The position numbers and the translations under genes are program-made. The notes below the pieces were generated by a model. That model searched no databases and was not told the DNA's origin. It worked only from the letters and a program-made list of their open reading frames with translations. Below, in pieces: positions 8,462-32,000 of a stretch of DNA of 32,000 nucleotides (its first letter is position 1; every line of letters begins with the position of its first letter). Location: assembly GCF_007748075.1 (NCBI RefSeq), contig NZ_CP036280.1, positions 2,910,001-2,942,000 on the forward strand, given 5' to 3'. This stretch comes from Mucisphaera calidilacus. Lineage in GTDB: Bacteria; Planctomycetota; Phycisphaerae; Phycisphaerales; Phycisphaeraceae.

Positions 8462-8908
8462 ATGACCACCACCACGGCCTCCGAACGCTTCGCCGCCGCT
8501 GTCAAACCCCTCGCCGACTCCGGCCGCTTCGCCGAAGTCTCCGCCACCGCCGACGCACTCACCTGCCTCGCCGACGGACCCGAAGATGAAGCCTGGTACA
8601 TCGCCCACACCGAAAAAACAGGCGTCATGACCCTTGGCTGGTACACCAGCGACCGATGGCTCTCCGAATCCATCGAAGCCGACCTCATGCACACAGGCGA
8701 CGACCTCGGCGAACTCTTCGACGAAGAACTCGAAGAACGCGACGTCCGCCACAAATTCCACTTCGAACACTTCCGCGACGACGAAAAACGCTACGTCTTC
8801 CGCGTCACCTGCCCCGAGTTCGCCTCCGACGACGAATTCGTACGCACCATCCTCGCCCTCGAAGCCTGCTTCCGAGAACTCGGCGACATGACCCCCGACG
8901 AAGACTGA
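8462..8908 (+). CDS. hypothetical acidic protein
   Basis: 148-aa ORF with very strong C/A-ending codon bias in this frame. No family recognised. Confidence 0.65.
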   Translation: MTTTTASERFAAAVKPLADSGRFAEVSATADALTCLADGPEDEAWYIAHTEKTGVMTLGWYTSDRWLSESIEADLMHTGDDLGELFDEELEERDVRHKFHFEHFRDDEKRYVFRVTCPEFASDDEFVRTILALEACFRELGDMTPDED

Positions 8909-9123
8909 CGCAAATCATCCGCCCAGCCCCACTTCCCCACGACCGCCCAACCCGCCCCGATTGGACAGAACCTCACGGCGCGTTATCTTGACACTGATCC
9001 GGTCGGGGATCATCCGCGAAGGACCGAGCCACATTTCGTTCGCCGGCGTTCAAGTCCCCGCCCACGGCCAGCCGGATCGTGCCCGTTGCCTGCCGACCTC
9101 GTTCCGCTGAGGAAGATGCTGCC

Positions 9124-10494
9124 ATGCGTGTGCTGATGCTGGGATGGGAATTCCCGCCCTATATCACCGGTGGACTCGGGACCGCCTGCTTCGGACTCAC
9201 ACGCGCCCTCAGCCGGCACGACCACCAGATCACCTTCGTCCTCCCCAAAGCCGTCGACGACGAGTACACCGAGCACGTCCGGCTCCTCACACCTCAGGCC
9301 AGACAGGCCGCCGAGGGCGACCGCAGCCCCGAATCCGTCGCCAGCACCTTCGAACCACCCGAGGCCGAACAACCCAAACCCGAACTCGAACACGTCACCT
9401 TCAAAGCCGTCCCATCGAAACTGCGTTCACCCTACCCCGAGGGACACGAGTTCTACGACGGGCCGCCCCAAGGCGTCGGCTTCATCCACCCCACCGCCAA
9501 CATCCCGCAGACCGACCCCGCCGCAGACGGACAAACGCCCCCGCCGCCGCCCAAGGCCGGGTACGACGGCGACATGGTGGGCGAAGCACGACGCTACGCC
9601 GACCTCTGCCGAGACCTCGCCACATCCAACGACTTCGACGTCATCCACGCACACGACTGGATGACCTTCCCCGCCGCAGCCGCCATCGCCAGGGCCTCCG
9701 GCAAACCCATGATCGCCCACATCCACTCCACCGAGTTCGACCGCTCAGGCGAAAACATCCACCAGGGCATCTACGACCTGGAGCGACAGGGCCTCCACGA
9801 CGCCGACCGCATCATCGCCGTCAGCCACCTCACCCAGTCCATCCTCGAAGCTCGCTACGCCATCCCCGCCGAAAAAGTCGACGTCATCTACAACGGCATC
9901 GACCACAACGGCAAACCACCCGCACAGCCCGACCCCGACAAGGACGCCATCCGAAGCGACGAGAAAATCGTCCTCTTCCTCGGCCGCGTCACCATGCAGA
10001 AAGGCCCAGAATACTTCGTCCGGGCCGCCAAACGCGTCCTCGACGTCATGGATGGCGTCCGCTTCGTCATCGCCGGCACAGGCGACAAAATCCGCGACCT
10101 CATCGAACTCTCCGCCGAACTCGGCATCGGACACCGCTGCCTCTTCACCGGCTTCCTCCACGGACCCGAGGTCGAACGCATCTACCAGATGGCCTCCGTC
10201 TACGTCATGCCCTCCGTCTCCGAACCCTTCGGCATCGCCACGCTCGAAGCCATCTCCCACGACGTCCCCGTCATCATCTCCAAGACCTCAGGCGTCTCCG
10301 AAGTCCTCACCCACGTCCTCAAGGTCGACTTCTGGGACACCGAGGAAATGGCCAACAAGATCATCGCCGTCCTCAAACACCCACCCCTCGCCACCACACT
10401 CCGACACCACGCCACCATCGAAGTCCGACAACTCACCTGGGACGGCGCCGCACAGAAATGCGCCGACCTCTACCGCCAACTCACCACCGCCTGA
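9124..10494 (+). CDS. glycosyltransferase, glycogen-synthase-like (GT4/GT5 type)
   Basis: Start chosen at ATG 9124 (MRVLMLGWEFPPYITGGLG, a typical GT N-terminus), with GAGGAAG upstream. EPFGIATLEA is the E-x7-E motif. The track start at 9079 adds 15 atypical residues. Confidence 0.8.
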   Translation: MRVLMLGWEFPPYITGGLGTACFGLTRALSRHDHQITFVLPKAVDDEYTEHVRLLTPQARQAAEGDRSPESVASTFEPPEAEQPKPELEHVTFKAVPSKLRSPYPEGHEFYDGPPQGVGFIHPTANIPQTDPAADGQTPPPPPKAGYDGDMVGEARRYADLCRDLATSNDFDVIHAHDWMTFPAAAAIARASGKPMIAHIHSTEFDRSGENIHQGIYDLERQGLHDADRIIAVSHLTQSILEARYAIPAEKVDVIYNGIDHNGKPPAQPDPDKDAIRSDEKIVLFLGRVTMQKGPEYFVRAAKRVLDVMDGVRFVIAGTGDKIRDLIELSAELGIGHRCLFTGFLHGPEVERIYQMASVYVMPSVSEPFGIATLEAISHDVPVIISKTSGVSEVLTHVLKVDFWDTEEMANKIIAVLKHPPLATTLRHHATIEVRQLTWDGAAQKCADLYRQLTTA

Positions 10495-11118: not shown

Positions 11119-12054
11119 ATGCTCAAGACCACCGTCGATCAGAACGTCTGGCTCGTCCCGCAGCACACCCATGCGCAGGTCAGCGGCTACCTCGCCGCCT
11201 ACTGGGGCAACCACCAGGGCTTCGCACGCCCCGGACACTACCCGGGCAGCACCCACCCCCATCACTGGCGCGACGAAGTCGTCCTCGGCATCGCCGAACA
11301 CGACAACGGCTGGTGGGAGTACGAGGCCACGCCCCGCTTCAACCCCCACGACGGACTGCCCGTCGGCCTCGGCGAATCCATCGACGCCTCTCCCGCCGAC
11401 GACGGCTTCGACCAGTGGCGCTCAGGCGGCTTCGAACGCTGGCACCTCGGCATCAACCGCCTCGCCGAACACCACCCCTACGCAGCACTCCTCATCGTCG
11501 GACACGCCTACTGGCTCTACGCCCCCGCCTTCGACCACCTCATGAACGAACCCCACGCCAACGCCTTCCGACACGCCATCTTTGGCGACCCCGACACCGC
11601 CGAAGGACTCGCCGCCGATCGCGACGCCACCCTCGCCTTCCTCCATGACATGGCCAAAACCCGCCAGCAACTCATCCGAACCCTCAACCACAACCCGCAT
11701 CTCGCCGATGCCACCCGCCCCCAACACCTCAACCCCCACATCCGACTCACCCAGACCCTCGACACCCTCTCCCTGCTCCTCGCACGCAACGACACCGACA
11801 CCCACCTCCTCCACGACGTCCCCCGTGCAGGCTGGCACGACCGCGTCACCCTCCGCTGGCAACACCTCGGACACCGCCGCTACCAGATCGACCCCTACCC
11901 CTTCGAGATCGACCCCCTGCCCGTCACCATCCCCGCCAAAACCGCATCCCCTGACGACCTCGACCCCGACACACCCATGACCACCCTCCACCGACTGCCA
12001 CACCAGACCCTCACCTTCGAGATCACCTCCGCTACCTCAACTTCGACGCCGTGA
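11119..12054 (+). CDS. hypothetical His-rich protein (possibly DUF3891-like)
   Basis: 311-aa ORF with strong codon bias. It has an IAEHDNGWWEYE (HDxGW) motif and many conserved-looking His residues. The family name is from memory only. Confidence 0.55.
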   Translation: MLKTTVDQNVWLVPQHTHAQVSGYLAAYWGNHQGFARPGHYPGSTHPHHWRDEVVLGIAEHDNGWWEYEATPRFNPHDGLPVGLGESIDASPADDGFDQWRSGGFERWHLGINRLAEHHPYAALLIVGHAYWLYAPAFDHLMNEPHANAFRHAIFGDPDTAEGLAADRDATLAFLHDMAKTRQQLIRTLNHNPHLADATRPQHLNPHIRLTQTLDTLSLLLARNDTDTHLLHDVPRAGWHDRVTLRWQHLGHRRYQIDPYPFEIDPLPVTIPAKTASPDDLDPDTPMTTLHRLPHQTLTFEITSATSTSTP

Positions 12055-13024
12055 ACGCCCCCGCGTCTCGCTCGCGAACCCACCCGCGCGACGGGCCCAC
12101 ACGCGCCTCGTACGCCGTCCACAAGTCATACCAGTACGCCAGAAAACGGTACGGCCGATACCCCTCGTAATGCGCCTCGATCAGCGGATCCAGCTCCTTG
12201 TCGTTCGAAGGCCGCTCGATCCCCTTCACCGCGCAGTAATGGCGATACGTCTCCGAATCGATCGCCAGAAAATCGTAATGCCCCAGCAGCTGACAGATGT
12301 TCGCCGCCGCGTAAGGCCCAATGCCGTTCAACCCCCGCAACGCCTCATACACCTCCCCCGCCGTCCGCTCAGGCGACGCATACCACCCCGCATCAATCGA
12401 CCCGTCCAGAAACCCACGCGCCACGTCAACAATCCGCTGCGCCCGATACCCCACCTTCACGTGCTCCTTCAGCCGCGCCGCACCATACCGACGCACCTGC
12501 CCGGGCGAAGGAAACGCCCCCCGACCCACACGCTCCACCAGCAACCGGTTCATCCGAATCGTCGACGTCCACGTCGTGTTGCACCCCGTGATCGTCTTCA
12601 CGATGTCCTCCCACAACGTAGGCGACCGAAACAACCGCCCGAACCCCCGCCGACGCGCCCCCGCGTGCATCGCGTACCACCCCGTAAAATCCTCATCCAC
12701 ACGCAACACCCGACCCAGCCTCTGCTTAACCCGAACCCCCTCTCCCCGATCCAGCTTCCGATGACACGCCACCACCAGCGGATCCCCTTGATCCCCCTGC
12801 GACACCCGAATCGCAATCAGTGAACTATCTTCAGTCGCCAGCGTCGTCTCAAAAACCTGACGCTCCGCATCCCAGTGATTCGGGGACAACAGAAAATACC
12901 CGTACGAACACACCGCCTCGGCCAAATCGAAATCCGAGGGGACCGAGAGCCTCAACCTGCTGCCACGCATCCGTTCTGCCGCCATATTCCGCTCGCCATT
13001 CCGTCTACAAGCCAGATCATTCAC
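12032..13024 (-). CDS. HhH-GPD superfamily DNA glycosylase (AlkA-like)
   Basis: Helix-hairpin-helix LRGLNGIGPYAAANICQLLG followed by Asp (AIDSETYRHY). The upstream segment WEDIVKTITGCNTTW is typical of AlkA-like proteins. The start is uncertain, with alternatives at 12985 and 12970. The 3' end overlaps the neighbouring gene by 23 bp. Confidence 0.7.
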   Translation of the reverse strand: MNDLACRRNGERNMAAERMRGSRLRLSVPSDFDLAEAVCSYGYFLLSPNHWDAERQVFETTLATEDSSLIAIRVSQGDQGDPLVVACHRKLDRGEGVRVKQRLGRVLRVDEDFTGWYAMHAGARRRGFGRLFRSPTLWEDIVKTITGCNTTWTSTIRMNRLLVERVGRGAFPSPGQVRRYGAARLKEHVKVGYRAQRIVDVARGFLDGSIDAGWYASPERTAGEVYEALRGLNGIGPYAAANICQLLGHYDFLAIDSETYRHYCAVKGIERPSNDKELDPLIEAHYEGYRPYRFLAYWYDLWTAYEARVGPSRGWVRERDAGAFTASKLR

Positions 13025-16744: not shown

Positions 16745-16855
16745 GTGGCCGCTCCTTCGTCATTTCTTCCGCTTTCGCAGACAATTTCCGCAGACAGACC
16801 CTGAATATTATGTAAATTATACTCGGCCTGCACACCCACAGCAGAACGAGTGATT

Positions 16856-24124: not shown

Positions 24125-24388
24125 GTGGCACACCCCTACGAGCCCCAAGCGCGAGCTTGGGGTGCCACACTCCAGACCGAGTCTGCGAGGGCTACCCACA
24201 GATCCCAGTGTTTTCTAACCCCCTACGAGCCCCAAGCGCAAGCTTGGGGTGCCACACCCATACGAGCCCTATCCGCAAGCTTGGGGTGCCACACTGCAAC
24301 CGAGCCTCCGAGGTTGCTGTGTGTAATCCACAGATCCTAGTGTTTTCTAAACCCTACGAGCCCCAAGCGCGAGCTTGGTGTGCCACAC
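24125..24388. repeat. REP-like array: four copies of a ~35-nt hairpin unit plus two copies of a 22-nt box
   Basis: The unit is CTACGAGCCCCAAGC-GCGA/GCAA-GCTTGGGGTGCCACAC. Hairpin stems (excluding the flanks) are at 24143-24162 and 24230-24249, a degenerate whole copy spans 24261-24294, and a fourth stem with one mismatch is at 24361-24380. The box CACAGATCC(C/T)AGTGTTTTCTAA is at 24197-24218 and 24329-24350. Confidence 0.75.
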
Positions 24389-24457
24389 CGCATCCGACTC
24401 CCTGAGGCTGCTGTCTGTGTCTCCCCTCACCCCCCAATATTTATCCAAATTTTCACA

Positions 24458-24577: not shown

Positions 24578-25405
24578 ATGAGAAGCCTCACGCTTACAGC
24601 ACTCGCCGCAGCAGCAATCGCTACCGCCGCTTCCGCCGATCCATACAACGACACCTACCCCATGATGAGTAGCGAAGAAGCCGCCACCACGACCTTCAAC
24701 CTCCGCCCTCAGGTCGGAATCACCGACTGGACCTGGCAAGGCACAACGCTGATCGAATCATGGCTTGTTTACGGGGCCTACGACAACGAACCTGCCACGC
24801 CACCCAACAACGGCATCAGAAACTTCTACACCTGGCCAGGTGCAGAGCCGTACCGCTCTGCCAGCAGTTCCAACGGCAGACACTTCGCCGATTCCTCTCC
24901 CTCCAATATCTACTTCGAACATACCCATGCGATCTGGGCAGATATCTATAACAGCGAATCTCACGATTGGGACAGCAGTGTTCGGATTGGTCACGACACC
25001 AGCTGGTACTTCGACACGGACGACCCCGAGCACCCCGAGCCAACCCTCGAAGAGCACACGCACCAGGCCTTCCAGGTCATCACCCCGACAACCGCGTCGC
25101 AATGGACACTGATCGATGACCTCTCCTTCGCGCTCAACAACGAGAGCGGCCAGATCATGTTCGAGATACGCCTGAGCGATCATTACCATGCATCAGTCTT
25201 CGGATTTAACCAGACGGGCAGCCCGAATGACTCTCAGCACGCAACGCCGAACCCCGGCGACAGCCTGATCATGACATGGGATACCGAGTACACGGGCGTA
25301 TCCAATGAGTATCAGGCTGCCTTTGTGCAGGCATATTACAGCGTCCCAGAGCCTTCAGCCATCATGCTGTGTCTTGCTCTCTCAGGAATCCTTGCCCGCC
25401 AGTAG
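24578..25405 (+). CDS. PEP-CTERM-anchored secreted protein
   Basis: Signal peptide MRSLTLTALAAAAIATAASA. C-terminal VPEPSAIMLCLALSGILARQ. Confidence 0.7.
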   Translation: MRSLTLTALAAAAIATAASADPYNDTYPMMSSEEAATTTFNLRPQVGITDWTWQGTTLIESWLVYGAYDNEPATPPNNGIRNFYTWPGAEPYRSASSSNGRHFADSSPSNIYFEHTHAIWADIYNSESHDWDSSVRIGHDTSWYFDTDDPEHPEPTLEEHTHQAFQVITPTTASQWTLIDDLSFALNNESGQIMFEIRLSDHYHASVFGFNQTGSPNDSQHATPNPGDSLIMTWDTEYTGVSNEYQAAFVQAYYSVPEPSAIMLCLALSGILARQ

Positions 25406-25520
25406 TCATCACGACAGACCGTCATCGGCAAACGCCTAAACCGAACAGTTACCAGATGTCCGAGCACGTAGTTGTGAAGGCACATAGATATCTCTTGCCC
25501 CACCAGAGGAGAACGCAGCA

Positions 25521-27730
25521 ATGAAGTCCAGAAACCGCAGCCATATCAACCCGCTACTGCCATCACTATGCCTTGCGACTGCAGCAATGACGATGGCACT
25601 TACGCCACAGCGCGCAACTGCCACCGATCTTATCCTTGGAGATATTCCTCCGTTCGAGACTCTAATGTTGTTTGGGGGATTGGATTATTCCTACAACAAT
25701 GGCGTCATAGGCGAATCGTACTTCGCGGCACTATTCGTATCGGGAGACAATACAAGTGCATCATTCGCAGGTAATTTTGAAGTAGGAGTACATGAGTCGG
25801 GATTGGTACTTGTCGATGACGGGGCAGTCCTGCGACTAGCATCGGGAATGGCGATTGGAGCCGATGTATCGGGGTATACGAGCAGAGCATCCGCTTCGGG
25901 CAGCGGCACAAAGTTTGTGGTAGCGATTGGCGAGACGTACGTCGGCAAGAATGCAGGCGGCAAGCTGGCCATCGAGGACCACGTCGCAATGCACGCACGA
26001 AATCTCTATATCGGTCACGCCAGCGGCAGTCACGGAGAAATGGTAGTCAAGTCATCAGCTACAGTATCCGCAGTTGGCACCAATAATAATTATATCTACG
26101 CGGCTCCTCCGGCACGGGAGAACTGACCGTCAATTCGGGTGCCTCGCTGATCGCAACACGCTTATATGTCGGGGATAAGGCGACCGGCGATGGTGAAGCC
26201 ACCGTATCGGGCTAGAATTCGTCAATCACCGTGGAAGGCTTCACAAGAGTCGGTGTTCAAGGCAATGCGAAGCTCTCAATCCTCGACGGCGCTACCGTTA
26301 TCAATGAATCAATTATGCATGATATCGTTGTTGGATCAGGGCCAGGTTCGAACGGCGTTGTCGTTGTATCGGGCAGTGTATATGACCCGAGCACTGGCGG
26401 ATACGCGGATTCAACTCTGGCCAGCAATCGCCATATCTATCTTGGTACCAGCAGTTCCACCGCACACATGTCGGTAGAAAACGGAGCCAATGTCTCCGCA
26501 TCTCGTCTCTATGTCCGTCCGCAGAGCACGCTCTCAGGTGCGGGCGGCACCGTGCTCGGCAGAACAGAAGTCTCAGGCAAGATCGATCCGGGTGCCTATG
26601 CCATCGAGGATGATGCCGTTGTAAGCACGACGGGCGAATTGAGTATCGCAGGTGACTGCATCATGGAAGCCGGCAGCGCTTTGCGTATCGATATCGCTTC
26701 CTCAGGCACCGATAGCATCAACGTAACCCCGAAAGCCAGCATGTCTGGGGACCTCACACTATCTAAGAGTAATCCCATTCTGGATATTAACTTCCCCAAC
26801 CAGTACGTGCCCGCCCCGGGGCAGAAATACGAGGTTGCCAGTTATACAGGCGATCTCACAGGCGTCTTCTCCAATGCACCGCTTCCCGGCGTCCCGATCG
26901 ACACGACGCACAATAATGAAATCGCCTTGATGATCGAGTACGACACGGACAACAAAGATATTAATCTGACCACACACTACATCGGCGACGCCAACATGGA
27001 TAACGCCGTGAACCTGCTTGACCTCTCAACGCTGGCAAGCAACTTTGATACGACCCCCGCTACATGGTCGATGGGCAACTTCAATACGGACAATACAGTC
27101 GATCTACTCGACCTCAGTGCTCTGGCCACGAACTTCGGTAAAGGCCAGACATCCCAATCACAGGCACCTGAGTCCTTCTCCTCCATCGGCTCGCCCGCGA
27201 CACTCAGCCTTGATGGCGACCTCACCGTCTCCGACGACGGCGGCATCACCACACCCGACCTCACCGGATACACCACCTACACACTCACCGCCGCCGCACT
27301 CACCGACAGCATCGACGCTCTCGAAATCCTGATCGAATCCGATGACCTGAATCAGGAATATCTCGGCTACACCATCTTCTCCAACAACAACGTCTTCTTG
27401 CAGCAAGCCGGCATCAACCCCTTACGTGACTCACAACTGCTCTTCGCCGAAGGCCTGTTGTCCGTCCAGGCCGATGAATCAGACACACTGCTGACTGCCG
27501 CCTTCGCCGGCTTCACACCCTTCACTACACGCGACATCGCCCAGATCGTCATCCCCGACGACGCCACCGCGACTTACGAGATCCAGGCCGTCATCGACGA
27601 CGAACTCTACATCGTCACCGGCACCCTCGGCACAGCAGCACCCCTGACTCTCATCCCCATCCCCGAACCCTCCTCACTCGCGGTTCTCGCCCTCACCGGC
27701 CTAGCCCTCGTCCGTCGTCGCGCCGCCTGA
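25521..27730 (+). pseudogene. disrupted adhesin-like protein gene (beta-helix repeats + dockerin-like repeats + PEP-CTERM)
   Basis: Frame 0 (25521-26126) and frame 2 (26090-27730) together encode one continuous repeat pattern: ...SSATVSAVGTNNNYIYA/GSSGTGELTVNSGASLIATRLYVGDKATGDGEATVSG*NSSITVEGFTRVGVQGNAKLSILDGATV. This needs a 1-nt frameshift near 26099-26102 and contains an in-frame TAG at 26213-26215. The 3' part encodes GDANMDNAVNLLDLSTLASNF, GNFNTDNTVDLLDLSALATNF and IPIPEPSSLAVLALTGLALVRRRAA. Confidence 0.65.
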
Positions 27731-27761
27731 CAGCACCCACACCACCAAGACTGACCCCGCC

Positions 27762-27788
27762 GGGCCGCCTCCAAAGGCGGCCCTTTTT
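27762..27788 (+). terminator. Rho-independent terminator
   Basis: GGGCCGCC-TCCAAA-GGCGGCCC is an 8-bp all-Watson-Crick GC stem. TTTTT follows, 32 nt after the stop at 27730. Confidence 0.7.
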
Positions 27789-27904
27789 CATGCCTCAACG
27801 CTGCCATCATCACTCCATCCCAAAACCGATACTTTCTTTCACCCCCACCCCCTGATTCCGGGGGTCGCGCGCACAAGGACGGTAATTGTGCGCACGTCGT
27901 GACC

Positions 27905-27995
27905 AAAAACAGGCCCTTTTTGGACCAAAACGCTCCAAAACGGACGAAAACGAACCCAAAACGCTCGAAAACGACCCGAAACGAACCCGAAAAAG
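27905..27995. repeat. helically phased A-tract / degenerate 10-11-bp tandem repeat (C[CG]AAAACGnn)
   Basis: A-tracts start at 27905, 27927, 27937, 27947, 27958, 27968, 27979 and 27990. Spacings from 27927 onward are 10, 10, 11, 10, 11 and 11 nt. AAAACG recurs five times, plus AAACG and AAAAAG. Confidence 0.75.
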
Positions 27996-28186
27996 TGTAA
28001 ATTCCTGCAAAGTCGTCAGACTGTGCGCGCCTCGCCCCTCAAACCACACCCCCACCGACGAACTCCCGCCACCCAACACCCACCCCGTGCCCCGTCCGGT
28101 AAGCACGGCCTGTTCAACGCACCCGAACACCACCAAGCCAACCCTAACCCCTTAACTCCGTTATAGGGCGGCTTTTGCAACCGCAC

Positions 28187-28224
28187 TTGACGTTCGGTTT
28201 GGATTTGGGTAACGTATACCGAAC
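28187..28224 (+). promoter_or_regulatory. candidate promoter (TTGACG-N17-TAACGT) overlapped by inverted repeat GTTCGGT-N19-ACCGAAC
   Basis: TTGACG at 28187-28192 and TAACGT at 28210-28215. The inverted-repeat arms are 28192-28198 and 28218-28224. The site is about 120 nt upstream of the ORF that precedes lexA. Confidence 0.3.
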
Positions 28225-28343
28225 AGATTGGCCGATAGAAGTTCAAGACCCGTTACACCCCGCGACGAAAAGAGACTCAGCAACAGCCGGATACCCCAAC
28301 ATATTGGGATCAACCCCCCGGCAAACGCTAGATGGGATAACAC

Positions 28344-28937
28344 ATGACCTCACCCGTACTCATGCTCGGACCCGGCGGCGACTACACCACCGCCTACGAA
28401 GCCCGCCCGGGCGGCCGTCTCGCACGCTCCCAGGCCAACGCCGACGCCAATCAGGGCGACAGCCAGCAACCCGGCTACCAGAGACAGCCCAAACGCCAGC
28501 CACACGACCGCTTCGAGCCTTCTAACCAACTGATCAACAAGCGATTAGCGCATGCCGCGCACCAGCCCGACTTCGAGGAGATCACCCTCCTCGCCGCCGC
28601 CTCGGCATGGCTCACCGAACAGATGAACCGCGTCGCCGAGTCCAGCGCCCTGCTCCAACGCCTCCGCGGCCTGCTCGCTCACGACAGCCTCACCCATCAC
28701 ACCCGTTCCCTGACCGTGATCCCGGAGATCGATCATGAATCTTACGCCCAAGCAGCTACACATCCTCAGTCGTATCAGAGACATACGTCTGGCACGCGGC
28801 TATTCGCCGACGATGCAGGAACTCGCCGACGAGCTCGGCGTCTCCAAGGTCACCGTTTTCGAGCACGTCGAAGCGCTCATCAAGAAGGGGGCCTTGAGGC
28901 GGCAGCCGAACAAGGCGCGCTCTTTGGAGCTGTGTGA
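28344..28937 (+). CDS. hypothetical protein upstream of and overlapping lexA
   Basis: The 197-aa ORF shows strong C-ending codon bias only from 28344 to about 28735. The last 203 nt overlap lexA in another frame and lack that bias. No family recognised, and the true 3' end is uncertain. Confidence 0.45.
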   Translation: MTSPVLMLGPGGDYTTAYEARPGGRLARSQANADANQGDSQQPGYQRQPKRQPHDRFEPSNQLINKRLAHAAHQPDFEEITLLAAASAWLTEQMNRVAESSALLQRLRGLLAHDSLTHHTRSLTVIPEIDHESYAQAATHPQSYQRHTSGTRLFADDAGTRRRARRLQGHRFRARRSAHQEGGLEAAAEQGALFGAV

Positions 28938-29355
28938 GGAAGTCGACCTGCCCGACGAGACGACCGGCCTCAAGCTCCCGCTGGTCGGCACGATCGCCGC
29001 CGGCTCGCCCATCGAGGCGGTCGAGCAACGCGAGCATCTCGATCTGGAGTCGATGTTTACGCCTCCCGGCTCCGCGGGCAACACCTTTGTCCTGCAGGTG
29101 CGTGGCGACTCGATGATCGACGAGCACATCGCCGAGGGCGACTACGTCATCTGCGAGAAGCGCAACGCGGCGCGGTCGGGCCAGACCGTCGTGGCGCTGC
29201 TCGACTCGGGCGAAGCGACGCTCAAGAAGCTCTACCACGAGTCGGGCAACAAGATCCGGCTGCAGCCCGCGAACGACAAGTACGAGCCGATCATCGTCGA
29301 GGCGGGGCGGGTGCAGATCCAGGGGGTCGCCATCGGCGTCGTGCGGTCTTACTGA
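28735..29355 (+). CDS. lexA: LexA repressor (SOS regulator, S24 peptidase)
   Basis: Winged HTH LTPKQLHILSRIRD..GYSPTMQELADELGVSKVTVFEHVEALIKKGALRR. Ala-Gly cleavage site VGTIAAGSPIEA. Ser/Lys dyad context VRGDSMID and ATLKKL. An in-frame TGA lies 18 nt upstream of the ATG, and GGAG is the RBS. Confidence 0.9.
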   Translation: MNLTPKQLHILSRIRDIRLARGYSPTMQELADELGVSKVTVFEHVEALIKKGALRRQPNKARSLELCEEVDLPDETTGLKLPLVGTIAAGSPIEAVEQREHLDLESMFTPPGSAGNTFVLQVRGDSMIDEHIAEGDYVICEKRNAARSGQTVVALLDSGEATLKKLYHESGNKIRLQPANDKYEPIIVEAGRVQIQGVAIGVVRSY

Positions 29356-29405
29356 GCCGGCCCTGTTGAAACGCCGGGGGCGGGGTTCATTTATGATGCA
29401 GGGCT

Positions 29406-30413
29406 ATGGAAGACAGGCCGATCGGTTTGCTGGCGGGGGGCGGGCGGCTGCCCATCATCGAGGCGGAGGGGATCCGCGCGATGGGGCGGAAGGTGGCCTG
29501 CGTGGGGTTTACGGGGCAGTATGACCCGGCGTTGCCTGAGCTGTGCGATTACTTCGAGACGGCAGGGATCGTTCGGATCAACCGGTGGCTGAAGCTGATG
29601 AAGCGGTGGGACGTGGAGCAGGCGGTCATGGTGGGGTACGTGCGTAAGACGCGTATGTATCAGCCGTTGCGGATCGTCCAGAACCTGCCGGACAGCAGGG
29701 CGATCCGTCTCTGGTATCGTGTGTTGCGTAATGACAAGCGTTCGCAGCTGATGCTGCGGGTGCTGGCGGACGAGTTGCACGATAACGGAGTCGACCTGAT
29801 CGACACCACAGCCTTCATCAAGCGTCATATTGCCGAACTGGGCGTGATGACCAGGACCCAGCCGACCGCGGAGCAGCAGGCGGATATTGATTTCGCTGCG
29901 CCGATTCTGGCGCGGATGAACGATCTGGATATCGGTCAGGCGTTGGCGATCAAGGAGCGTGACGTGATCGCGGTGGAGGCGATCGAGGGCACGGACCGGA
30001 TGATCAAGCGGGCGGGGATCCTGTGCAAGGCGGGCGGGTGGACGCTGATCAAGGGGACGAAGCCGACGAAGGACCTGCGGTTCGACGTCCCGACGGTGGG
30101 GGTCTCGACGATCAACAACATGAAGTCTTCGAAGGCGGCGTGCCTGGTGATCACGGCGGGGAACGTGATCATGATCGACAAGGAGGACGTGCTGGCGGCG
30201 GCGGACGCGGCGGGGATCTGCATTGTGGGGATCGAGCCGGTGGAGGGGACGGAGCTGCCGATGGAGACGCTGGCGAAGTACGCCGAGTCGATGGACGAGC
30301 CGATCGAGGCGTTGCAGGGGAGTCTGGTGAAGCCTGTGGGGGAGGAGGCTGATGCCGAGGCCGAGGAGGGGGAGCGTTTTGAGTCAGGCGGATCGGCGCC
30401 GGCTCAGGGGTAG
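29406..30413 (+). CDS. lpxI: UDP-2,3-diacylglucosamine diphosphatase LpxI (DUF1009) with an acidic C-terminal tail
   Basis: IGLLAGGGRLP at the N-terminus. LDIGQALAIKERDVIAVEAIEGTDRMIKRAG and RFDVPTVGVSTI parallel Caulobacter LpxI. Codons are G-ending. Confidence 0.85.
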   Translation: MEDRPIGLLAGGGRLPIIEAEGIRAMGRKVACVGFTGQYDPALPELCDYFETAGIVRINRWLKLMKRWDVEQAVMVGYVRKTRMYQPLRIVQNLPDSRAIRLWYRVLRNDKRSQLMLRVLADELHDNGVDLIDTTAFIKRHIAELGVMTRTQPTAEQQADIDFAAPILARMNDLDIGQALAIKERDVIAVEAIEGTDRMIKRAGILCKAGGWTLIKGTKPTKDLRFDVPTVGVSTINNMKSSKAACLVITAGNVIMIDKEDVLAAADAAGICIVGIEPVEGTELPMETLAKYAESMDEPIEALQGSLVKPVGEEADAEAEEGERFESGGSAPAQG

Positions 30414-32000
30414 GAGCGTCAGGAGTATCGTGACCGCGGCGGGTTCGGGGATGGCGGTGTTGCCGAAGTGGCTGGCGAGGATGGAGAGGTCGAGGAGGTC
30501 GACGGTGTTGTCGCCGTTGAAGTCGCCCTGGGTGAAGCCAAAGACTCCGGGCAGGCCGAAGTTGGCGGCAAGGATGGAGAGGTCGTTCATGTCGACGCTG
30601 CCGTCGAGGTTGGCGTCGGCTGGGAGGAGGGTTGCGCTGAAATAGGTGACTTCGCCTGTGGCCATCAGGCTGGAGGTGTCGAAGGTGCCGGGTCCGTTGT
30701 AGAGGATGGTGTCGAAGGCTCCGGTGATGTCGGCGTTGGTCCAGTCGAAGAGCTGGTAGGTGGTGATCTGGAGACTTTGCAGGTCGAGGCCATCGTCGAA
30801 TTCGAGGAGGAGGGTTCCGGCGAGGGCGACGGGGGTGTCGGGGTCGGCGAACTGGATGATGGAGCCCCACTGGTTGTCTTCGAAGACGAGGCGGAGGGTG
30901 GCGGCGGGGTCGATGGTGAGTTCCTGCTCGATGGTGATGGGGATGGCGGGTTCGGATTCATCCAGGGGGTTGTCGTCCCAGATGCGTAGGGTTTCGCTGC
31001 TTTGCAGGATCAGGCCTTTGACGCGGCCATCGGGGTGGATGGCGTTGCGGACGCCGGCCAGGCGTTGACTCATCCTGTTTCCTGATGTCCTGTCTATGTA
31101 GTAATGACTTCTGCGCAGATCCGAAGCCGTGAAGTCGGTGTTATGCAGGTTTGCATGGTTAAATACGACTGACTGCAGGTTTAGATTGCTCAGGTCCCAG
31201 TCGGTCAGGTCGTTGTAGCCCAAGTCGATCCCGGCGAGATTTTTGTTCTTGTAGCTGGCGGTGCTGTAGAGCTGGCCTGCGGTGAATCCGGAATCGGTGG
31301 TTCTATAGAAGTCCGCTCCGGTGATGAGGGCGTCGGACAGGTCGGTGTTGGTGAGGTTGGCGTAGTCGAGATTCGCGTCGGTGAGGTTGGCGTTGTTCAG
31401 GTCGGTGTTGGTGAGGTTGGCGTAGTCCAAATCTGTGTCGGTGAGGTTCTGGCCGGCGAGGTTCCATCCGGTCAGGTCGTTGGAGTACAATTTGATCCCG
31501 GTGAGGTTCTTGTTCTTGTAGCTGGCGGTGCTGTAGAGCTGGGTGGCGGTGAATCCGGAATCGGTGGTTGAGCCGAAATTTGCCTCGGTGATGATGGCGT
31601 CGGACAGGTCGGTGTTGGTGAGGGTGGCGTTGTATAAATATGCGTCGGTGAGGTTGGCGTTGTTCAGGTCGGTGTTGGTGAGGTTCTGGCCGGCGAGGTT
31701 CCATCCGGTCAAGTCGTTGTAGCCCAAGTCGATCCCGGTGAGGTTCTTGTTCTTGTAGCTGGCGGTGCTGTAGAGCTGGGCTGCGGTGAAACCGGAATCG
31801 GTGGTTCTATAGAAGTCCGCTCCGGTGATGAGGGCGTCGGACAGGTCGGTGTTGGCCAGGTTGGCGAGGCCGAAGTAGGCGTCGGTCAGGTTCTGGCCGG
31901 CGAGGTTCCAGGCCGTGAGATCGTTGTACCGCAAGTCGATCCCGGCGAGATTTTTGTTCTTGTAGCTGGCGGTGCTGTAGAGCTGGCCTGCGGTGAATCC
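30384..32000 (-). CDS. pentapeptide-repeat surface protein with dockerin-like repeats and PEP-CTERM anchor (N-terminus beyond the right edge)
   Basis: The frame is open to position 32000; the track M at 31934 is a TTG inside repeat ...GIDLRYNDL. Modules are repeated: ADFYRTTDSGFTA.QLYSTASYKNKNL.GIDLGYNDLTGWNLAGQNLT.TDL. The C-terminus has DANLDGSVDMNDLSILAANF, GDFNGDNTVDLLDLSILASHF and IPEPAAVTILLTLLPLSRRRSA. Confidence 0.8.
   Translation of the reverse strand, partial: GFTAGQLYSTASYKNKNLAGIDLRYNDLTAWNLAGQNLTDAYFGLANLANTDLSDALITGADFYRTTDSGFTAAQLYSTASYKNKNLTGIDLGYNDLTGWNLAGQNLTNTDLNNANLTDAYLYNATLTNTDLSDAIITEANFGSTTDSGFTATQLYSTASYKNKNLTGIKLYSNDLTGWNLAGQNLTDTDLDYANLTNTDLNNANLTDANLDYANLTNTDLSDALITGADFYRTTDSGFTAGQLYSTASYKNKNLAGIDLGYNDLTDWDLSNLNLQSVVFNHANLHNTDFTASDLRRSHYYIDRTSGNRMSQRLAGVRNAIHPDGRVKGLILQSSETLRIWDDNPLDESEPAIPITIEQELTIDPAATLRLVFEDNQWGSIIQFADPDTPVALAGTLLLEFDDGLDLQSLQITTYQLFDWTNADITGAFDTILYNGPGTFDTSSLMATGEVTYFSATLLPADANLDGSVDMNDLSILAANFGLPGVFGFTQGDFNGDNTVDLLDLSILASHFGNTAIPEPAAVTILLTLLPLSRRRSA

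Follow-up and report, generated by a model that had tools for sequence, protein, structure and literature searches.

A sharp reversal of strand composition across lexA in Mucisphaera calidilacus and its relation to chromosome replication

The strand composition around lexA in Mucisphaera calidilacus Pan265 raises the question of what kind of chromosomal landmark reverses the base bias of a bacterial DNA strand so abruptly. In the 32,000-nt stretch analysed here (the window), the + strand is C/A-rich up to lexA (28735-29355) and G/T-rich beyond it, and a preliminary description made from the letters alone took this for a candidate replication origin or for an inversion or assembly junction. GC skew is the standard means of placing origins and termini and of checking assemblies, and its polarity is treated as universal. 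We find that the flip in Pan265 is real and extreme, and that it lies between two arms of chromosome replication. Our leading interpretation, to which we give an even chance, is that it is most likely a terminus with a C/A-rich leading strand, the reverse of the usual polarity. Either answer, origin or terminus, would be unusual: either the polarity is reversed here or an origin lies in ordinary coding DNA without the elements expected of it, and either challenges an assumption of genome annotation.

Strand composition of the window

In 1-kb windows, the GC skew of the + strand ranges from -0.25 to -0.46 across 1-24.5 kb and 27-28.7 kb, is about 0 over lexA, and reaches +0.29 to +0.36 from 29.5 kb to the end of the window. 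AT skew switches together with it, from A-rich on the left to T-rich on the right. The cumulative G-C curve is level across the lexA frame, about 28750-29320, and the G:C counts of 6072:11758 left of lexA and 1061:563 right of it differ with a chi-square p of 4e-138. The G/T-rich side occupies only 2.6 kb of the window; in a sister Mucisphaera genome (locus L081, below) it runs on for at least 15 kb. All six 60-base counts of C and G in the preliminary description were exact on recount, and the reversal of codon usage that it reported is borne out on both strands. On the left, the plus-strand gene at 8462-8908 has GCC 14 times and GCG never, CTC 11 times and CTG never, and GAA 18 times to one GAG, and on the right lpxI has GCC 6/GCG 28, CTC 1/CTG 21 and GAA 2/GAG 25. 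Among minus-strand genes, the pentapeptide-repeat gene right of the flip has GCC 40/GCG 4 and the gene at 12032-13024 on the left has GCC 1/GCG 30.

At fourfold-degenerate sites the flip is stronger than had been described. Genes were called by codon-position GC content, and many were checked against Pfam. On the + strand, the 15 left plus-strand genes (n = 2990 sites) have C 0.758, G 0.078, A 0.123 and T 0.041, a GC skew of -0.81; the 7 left minus-strand genes (n = 1020 sites), also read on the + strand, have -0.79. The skew is -0.09 in lexA and +0.69 in both lpxI, on the + strand, and the pentapeptide gene, on the minus strand, again read on the + strand. GC content at third codon positions (GC3) is 0.82-0.87 on either side of the switch. 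The bias is thus strand-wide and not tied to gene orientation. Because minus-strand genes carry the same + strand bias at fourfold sites, transcription or coding-strand effects are not its cause, and a skew driven by either was ruled out. Its magnitude is several-fold above the strongest phylum averages that we found reported. Neutral sites are ~76% C and 8% G, so that the codons of a gene depend almost wholly on the strand that carries it.

The C/A-rich regime of the + strand covers 1-24577, with 20 called genes (13 on the + strand, 7 on the minus strand), all of which have a + strand GC skew at third positions (GC3 skew) of -0.47 to -0.84. The last gene of this regime is a conserved gene without a Pfam match (28344-28937, + strand), hereafter the upstream gene, whose fourfold sites include 28 C and 2 G. 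Next on the + strand is lexA itself, encoding an S24 peptidase with a LexA DNA-binding domain, in which third-position G and C are balanced over the full length, and then lpxI (29406-30413, + strand) in the G/T regime, with the same fourfold skew as the next gene. This is the 3′ part of the pentapeptide-repeat gene (30384-32000, minus strand; 808 aa, QDU72588). The balance in lexA could mean that the gene is a true half-and-half zone, that the boundary shifted later, or that damping is specific to this gene; lexA is also more mildly skewed than its neighbours in other genomes.

The abruptness of the change is the one feature that speaks for an assembly chimera, in which unrelated sequences were mis-joined at lexA. 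The Pan265 chromosome, CP036280, is closed at 3,486,541 bp (PMC8882080). The window matches it, and nine window proteins have consecutive GenBank accessions from QDU72566 to QDU72588, ascending from left to right, with QDU72586, 72587 and 72588 consecutive across the switch itself. Moreover, the junction is ancestral synteny, as about 20 Phycisphaeraceae loci have lexA and then lpxI on one strand, and the feature recurs in two sister genomes that were assembled independently. The assembly junction that had been proposed is thereby refuted, and we regard the chance of a mis-join as negligible.

Substitutions at lexA and the switch in relatives

The closest relatives are L090 (LexA identity 96%), the sister Mucisphaera sp. 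(L001, its lexA locus on a 3.25-Mb contig; 90%) and L086 (88%). In all three the order is glycosyltransferase gene, upstream gene, lexA, lpxI; in L001 and L086 lpxI is followed on the minus strand by a homolog of window gene 12032-13024, and the short L090 contig stops inside lpxI. The block of promoter, upstream gene, lexA and lpxI (28092-30413, + strand), which in relatives comes directly after the glycosyltransferase gene (window 9079-10494), has moved in Pan265. It now lies, as a 2.3-kb unit without extra DNA and with its orientation kept, 18 kb to the right of that gene, adjoining the pentapeptide gene, so that its former right-hand neighbours are on its left. The coding strand of lpxI is C-rich in L090, L001 and L086 (GC3 skew -0.53 to -0.72), whereas in Pan265, in the same orientation, it has a GC3 skew of +0.42 and a fourfold skew of +0.69. 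Because the orientation of lpxI is unchanged while the composition of its own coding strand is reversed, the change came about by mutation in place and not by rearrangement, and the inversion endpoint put forward earlier is refuted. The comparison with relatives that had been advised as a check showed that the upstream gene, lexA and lpxI have kept their ancestral arrangement and orientation, without an inversion breakpoint.

Substitutions on the Pan265 branch, polarised at sites where the relatives agree and counted as towards G/T or towards C/A, show where the change begins. They number 50 against 5 in lexA and 75 against 3 in lpxI and its spacer. In the upstream gene they are 18 against 5, equal to the ratio of control lineages (~3:1); the promoter has 2 against 4. 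Of the fourfold sites with ancestral C, 18 of 56 in lexA, 25 of 40 in lpxI and 0 of 15 in the upstream gene have become G. Since lexA and lpxI shifted to G/T and the upstream gene did not, mutation pressure changes at about 28.73 kb, where the upstream gene meets lexA inside the ancestral operon. The present switch is accordingly drawn at a probable 28700-28770; this DNA is orthologous to that of relatives, and alignment of the junction with three of them revealed neither an insertion nor a new motif. In this respect, the relocation of the lexA-lpxI block amounts to a natural experiment on the speed and direction with which genes are rewritten after a change of strand regime.

The substitutions also bear on the nature of the bias. 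The dominant branch change is C to G, and on the C-rich strand 0.80 of fourfold sites are pyrimidines. Since transitions leave the ratio of purines to pyrimidines unchanged, these counts imply an asymmetry of transversions. With a bias of this type, the deamination argument by which the G/T-rich strand is taken as the leading strand is not directly transferable to this lineage.

A switch of the same sign recurs in two further genomes, 1-5 kb beyond the same pentapeptide gene in all three. In the sister Mucisphaera sp. the lexA region lies at 0.90 Mb in a uniform C-rich regime, interrupted only by an island at the 3′ end of lexA. One regime extends across 0.894-1.504 Mb, and the switch, of the same sign as in Pan265, follows at ~1.5036 Mb, 3 kb past the 3′ end of the pentapeptide ortholog (L081, the pentapeptide/switch locus of this genome). 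It falls inside a gene for a 596-aa membrane protein in which coding periodicity is normal throughout. In the third genome, JAVKCD01 (pentapeptide/switch locus L082, on a 1.08-Mb contig), lexA lies at 302 kb within 20 kb of uniform C-rich DNA, one regime extends across 0.292-0.960 Mb, and the only observed switch, again of the same sign, is at ~960 kb, 4.9 kb past the pentapeptide ortholog. A single regime over at least 600 kb, ended by one same-sign switch near the pentapeptide ortholog in two sisters, leads us to conclude that the switch is a replichore boundary and a chromosome-scale landmark. L081 and L082 share 82-86% DNA identity in the block of DUF6851, BNR and pentapeptide genes, but homology ends ~100 bp past the pentapeptide gene, and none is found at or beyond the switch; the three genomes have the pentapeptide flank in common and differ from one another in the other flank and at the switch itself. 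Because synonymous sites are saturated between the three genomes, an inherited scar of rearrangement would have been erased, so the switch is actively maintained, and this points to the direction of the replication fork. The pentapeptide homologues of L083/L084 and L089 lie in genomes without skew and are uninformative.

These comparisons also bear on the view that the flip is a historical relic, either of an inversion endpoint or of a segment imported from a relative of opposite skew. The lexA block has indeed moved relative to its neighbours in Pan265, breakpoints lie near the switch in all three genomes, and the flip of opposite sign described below, in Poriferisphaera ZRK32, coincides with a jump in GC3 that could reflect import. 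A rearrangement, however, cannot alter the composition of a gene's own coding strand, and here gene order and orientation are ancestral and the changes are point substitutions that run in one direction and are specific to the lineage. The identity of LpxI to its sister ortholog, 74%, is typical of neighbouring orthologs, and GC3 is equal on either side, so that neither the shift in GC or GC3 nor the atypical ortholog identity of a horizontally acquired segment is found. The same switch stands beside the same gene in three genomes even though synonymous sites are saturated, and hence must be actively maintained. A relic is therefore very improbable, and adding the chance of an artefact raises the figure hardly at all. 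A composition switch of replichore scale that is not a rearrangement relic is what a terminus leads one to expect.

Origin or terminus

The flip has the form of a replication-type strand switch with the textbook sign of an origin, as the preliminary description stated. Within the window, the change from C-rich to G-rich gives the cumulative skew its minimum; the maximum that marks a terminus, where G-rich gives way to C-rich, is of the opposite sign to what is seen. An origin of the usual polarity, with a G/T-rich leading strand and forks diverging from about 28.7-29.3 kb, is the main rival, which we consider less probable than a terminus. It would be an atypical origin, away from dnaA and without a recognisable cluster of DnaA boxes or AT-rich unwinding element. 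Its sign, in both GC and AT skew, is the universal one. In addition, the three genomes of the Mucisphaera clade and Poriferisphaera WC338 switch sharply, and the transitions of opposite sign in Poriferisphaera take place more gradually; the WC338 switch has this same sign and a position between lexA and lpxI, 140 kb from the start of the record; the order of Pan265 accessions is compatible with lexA near the end of the record; and the genes beside the L082 switch diverge from it.

Against an origin stands the DNA in which the switch lies. In Pan265 this is a conserved operon of overlapping genes, and in L081 a membrane-protein gene; that is, coding DNA at the upstream gene/lexA junction in the one and within the 596-aa gene in the other. 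The Pan265 DNA is orthologous, without insertion, to DNA that is no boundary in L090, L001 and L086, and between the congeners L081 and L082 the DNA at the switch is not homologous. For an essential cis element such a lack of conservation would have no precedent. Origin DNA or flanks homologous between close relatives were likewise not found. DnaA boxes (TTATCCACA-like, up to 2 mismatches; the box of this lineage may differ) number 55 in the window against 45 expected, with no cluster at the switch, and no cluster was found in L081, L082 or L011 either. No AT-rich unwinding element lies at the switch, the windows of lowest GC being elsewhere. By tblastn with E. coli and B. subtilis proteins, dnaA, dnaN, gyrB and parAB are absent from the window, and in 80 lexA loci the only matches were isolated XerD-, ParB- and Soj-like ones in three other loci; the precomputed Pfam lists of L081 and L082 contain no DnaA, DnaN or GyrB. 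Linkage to dnaA, dnaN, gyrB or parAB is not obligatory for origins in all bacteria. The earlier observations that dnaA, dnaN, parAB and a DnaA-box cluster are missing from the window, and that most genes on the left are oriented the wrong way for an origin, both hold; about 69% of genes would be head-on.

On both its sides the closest non-coding DNA (27.73-28.34 kb) is C-rich, and the neutral sites of the gene that follows on the right have stayed C-rich. An origin within it (27731-28343) was considered and rejected on these grounds, the stretch being C-rich throughout. As four of five defining features of oriC were looked for and not found, the flip cannot be filed under that class; it fits the general definition of a replichore boundary. 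Of the candidate origin, then, the sign stands and the DNA context does not, since the switch lies inside an operon that is orthologous to non-boundary DNA in three relatives, with no insertion. The origin reading relies on the sign and is very hard to reconcile with the context of the switch.

We favour instead a terminus of inverted polarity. In this model, two forks would converge at the flip, between the replication arms of the M. calidilacus chromosome. Within each arm one strand is under a very strong mutation bias, to the extent of ~76% C and 8% G at neutral sites, which would follow the direction of the fork rather than that of the genes. The block of upstream gene, lexA and lpxI came to straddle this boundary, whereupon nearly all changes in lexA and lpxI were towards G/T. 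In relatives the sequence marks no boundary, so its position appears not to be encoded in the local DNA. A position that the local sequence does not fix, together with genes that mostly point at the switch, amounts to terminus-like behaviour, and a terminus here would make the leading strand C/A-rich. In the strongly skewed loci, the coding strand is C-rich in 57 genes and G-rich in 26, and ileS and ffh are oriented towards the switch.

Several observations weigh against this interpretation. The sign runs from C-rich to G-rich along the + strand, and to our knowledge, wherever a bacterial origin has been mapped, this sign marks it. The three switch zones have no dif-like or Ter-like site in common, which leaves the sharpness of the switch (about 0.1-1 kb) and the conservation of its position to within 5 kb without a mechanism. 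A canonical dif core was not found, nor was any 28-mer common to the three zones or any palindrome shared by the switches, and a small DNA-binding gene beside the L082 switch has no counterpart at the others. Prediction of dif reportedly did not succeed for Planctomycetes (PMC3025954). UniProt accession order suggests a place for lexA at a fraction of 0.66 or more along the Pan265 record and not in its middle, a bound that assumes accession order to be gene order, and the Pla110 accession showed the order of genomes in accession space not to be simple. Gene orientation is itself weak evidence, because the strand bias of genes in Planctomycetes is reported to be close to 50% (PMC11040001). On the G-rich strand lie atpD and the genes for IDH and PEP carboxylase, and the orientation of tRNA and housekeeping genes provides few and mixed data points on which strand leads.

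Two Poriferisphaera genomes complicate the picture further. In ZRK32 (L009:7770-7786) a switch of opposite sign falls between two genes 15 bp apart, so if polarity is uniform in the family, the argument that there is no room for an origin cuts both ways. WC338 (L011) has an 8-kb C-rich block between G-rich flanks (L011:3400-11430), and thus both signs within 8 kb. If the complete records start near origins, the signs in ZRK32 and WC338 fit the usual polarity. The order of genes around lexA is identical in the two genomes, and their skew patterns are mirror images. Strong skew is not confined to Pan265: strand-wide GC3 skew is 0.5-0.85 in the window and in L001, L003, L009, L011, L018, L043, L050, L076, L081, L082, L085 and L086, and nearly nil in other relatives, e.g., L087, L088 and L089. 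Extreme skew is thus a trait of several Phycisphaeraceae genera that has been gained or lost within the family.

The boundary may also be of an undescribed kind, either a zone of initiation or termination set by the geometry of the chromosome or a polarity that differs between genera; we think this improbable, though it deserves more weight than a relic. At none of the switches did we find a conserved cis element, and both signs occur within 8 kb in WC338 and the opposite sign in ZRK32 despite conserved gene order. In Pan265 the boundary lies 1.67 kb left of the junction of block and pentapeptide gene, about half the length of a 3.15-kb island to its left (half being 1.6 kb), and a terminus defined as a midpoint would shift by half the length of an inserted island. 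No known mechanism, however, sharpens a meeting point set by geometry to below 1 kb, and the half-island agreement may be coincidence. For the inverted terminus in its fullest form, namely that Mucisphaera and its relatives have a strand bias several-fold stronger than in described bacteria, inverted and largely driven by transversions instead of cytosine deamination, and a terminus that can slide into genes without a recognisable site, we put the probability somewhat short of even. A search of the library available to us found no paper on Mucisphaera skew or on inverted skew in Planctomycetes. Pan265 (DSM 100697) is cultivated, so the question of origin or terminus is directly testable.

Neighbouring features and known systems

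The island lies 1 kb left of the switch (24578-27730, + strand), has low GC (0.52-0.58) and weak skew, and contains three genes without close homologues, one of which ends in PEP-CTERM. Its fourfold GC skew of -0.48 indicates that it is partly ameliorated. An attempt to sample many places of the sister genome through the 85-aa dockerin/PEP-CTERM tail gave six short proteins only. The densest group of DnaA-box-like words in the window (24192-24450) is found in 484 bp of non-coding DNA that border the island on the left; it comprises five words with no more than 2 mismatches, TAATCCACA and TTATCCAAA among them, is not significant given the C/A-rich composition, and lies where skew does not change. 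Skew is equally unchanged at 16800-16827, where CCCTGAATATTATGTAAATTATACTCGG holds TTATGTAAATT, a match at 10 of 11 positions to the XerD arm of B. subtilis dif without a left arm. The sister genome has an island of its own at the 3′ end of lexA (L001:10622-15168), of ~4.5 kb, low in GC and free of skew. At the far end the final 43 codons of lexA are duplicated, which gives the island the look of an integrative element with a candidate attachment site in lexA.

Between the Pan265 island and the promoter of the block lies non-coding DNA (27731-28170) without counterpart in L090, L086 or L001. It is C-rich throughout and is therefore left of the switch. It contains a terminator hairpin at 27752-27790 and a 29-bp palindrome (27867-27895), present once in the window and in none of 90 loci. 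The palindrome is perfect, built as 8+9+8 (GCGCACAA-N9-TTGTGCGC), and in one arm it is similar to the XerC arm of E. coli dif. Beside it, at about 27915-28000, are about seven phased AAAACG repeats at a spacing of ~11 bp (phased A-tracts). Palindrome and repeats both lie in the DNA that has no counterpart in relatives. The promoter region of the operon of upstream gene and lexA (28171-28343) is strongly conserved in four genomes; it carries ACTTGACGTTCGG...GATTTGGGTAACGTA..CC.AACAGA and the stem-loop CCCCAACATnTTGGGG, and a GTTCGG / CCGAAC inverted repeat inside the motif is a candidate SOS box. The upstream gene always precedes lexA and has homologs in about 60 loci, and its open frame overlaps lexA by about 200 nt in another frame. 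The lexA-lpxI spacers of relatives yielded lineage-specific hairpins only: those of L019-L023 and L029 hold long ones, e.g., GTTTAGCGG...CCGCTAAAC and GCCGCGAATAAACGCAAAT...ATTTGCGTTCATTCGCGGC, and that of L029 also has a (GGTGGTTG)n repeat.

Among known systems, the skew switch at the terminus and dif of E. coli and B. subtilis shares with the Pan265 boundary a sharp change on the scale of the replichore, genes that tend to converge, a plastic neighbourhood (here an island and rearrangement breakpoints) and the lack of origin features. It differs in sign, which in Pan265 is opposite to that of every described terminus; in site, as no 28-bp dif-like or other shared sequence was found at the switches of the Pan265 clade; and in strength, with a fourfold GC skew of about 0.8 here and a large purine/pyrimidine component that needs transversions. 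An oriC is marked by DnaA boxes and an AT-rich unwinding element, usually beside dnaA and dnaN. The Pan265 switch resembles it in the sign of the change in GC and AT skew and in the sharp step. Unlike an oriC, it lies in coding DNA without a DnaA-box cluster or AT-rich element and without dnaA, dnaN, gyrB or parAB nearby; congeners do not share the DNA at the switch, and in relatives the sequence of the Pan265 switch marks no boundary.

Polar fork traps, such as Tus-Ter of E. coli, RTP-Ter of B. subtilis and ter of plasmid R6K, would explain a sharp convergence within genes and, by two opposed sites, a short balanced zone like that of lexA. This is a resemblance only, and candidate sites or a terminator protein were not found here. 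Vertebrate mitochondrial DNA, in which one strand is rich in G+T and the overall GC skew is about 0.3-0.4, is comparable to the Pan265 chromosome in both respects. Its bias, however, is ascribed to deamination of a long-lived single strand, by transitions, whereas in the M. calidilacus lineage pyrimidines make up 0.80 of the fourfold sites of the C-rich strand and C to G is the dominant change.

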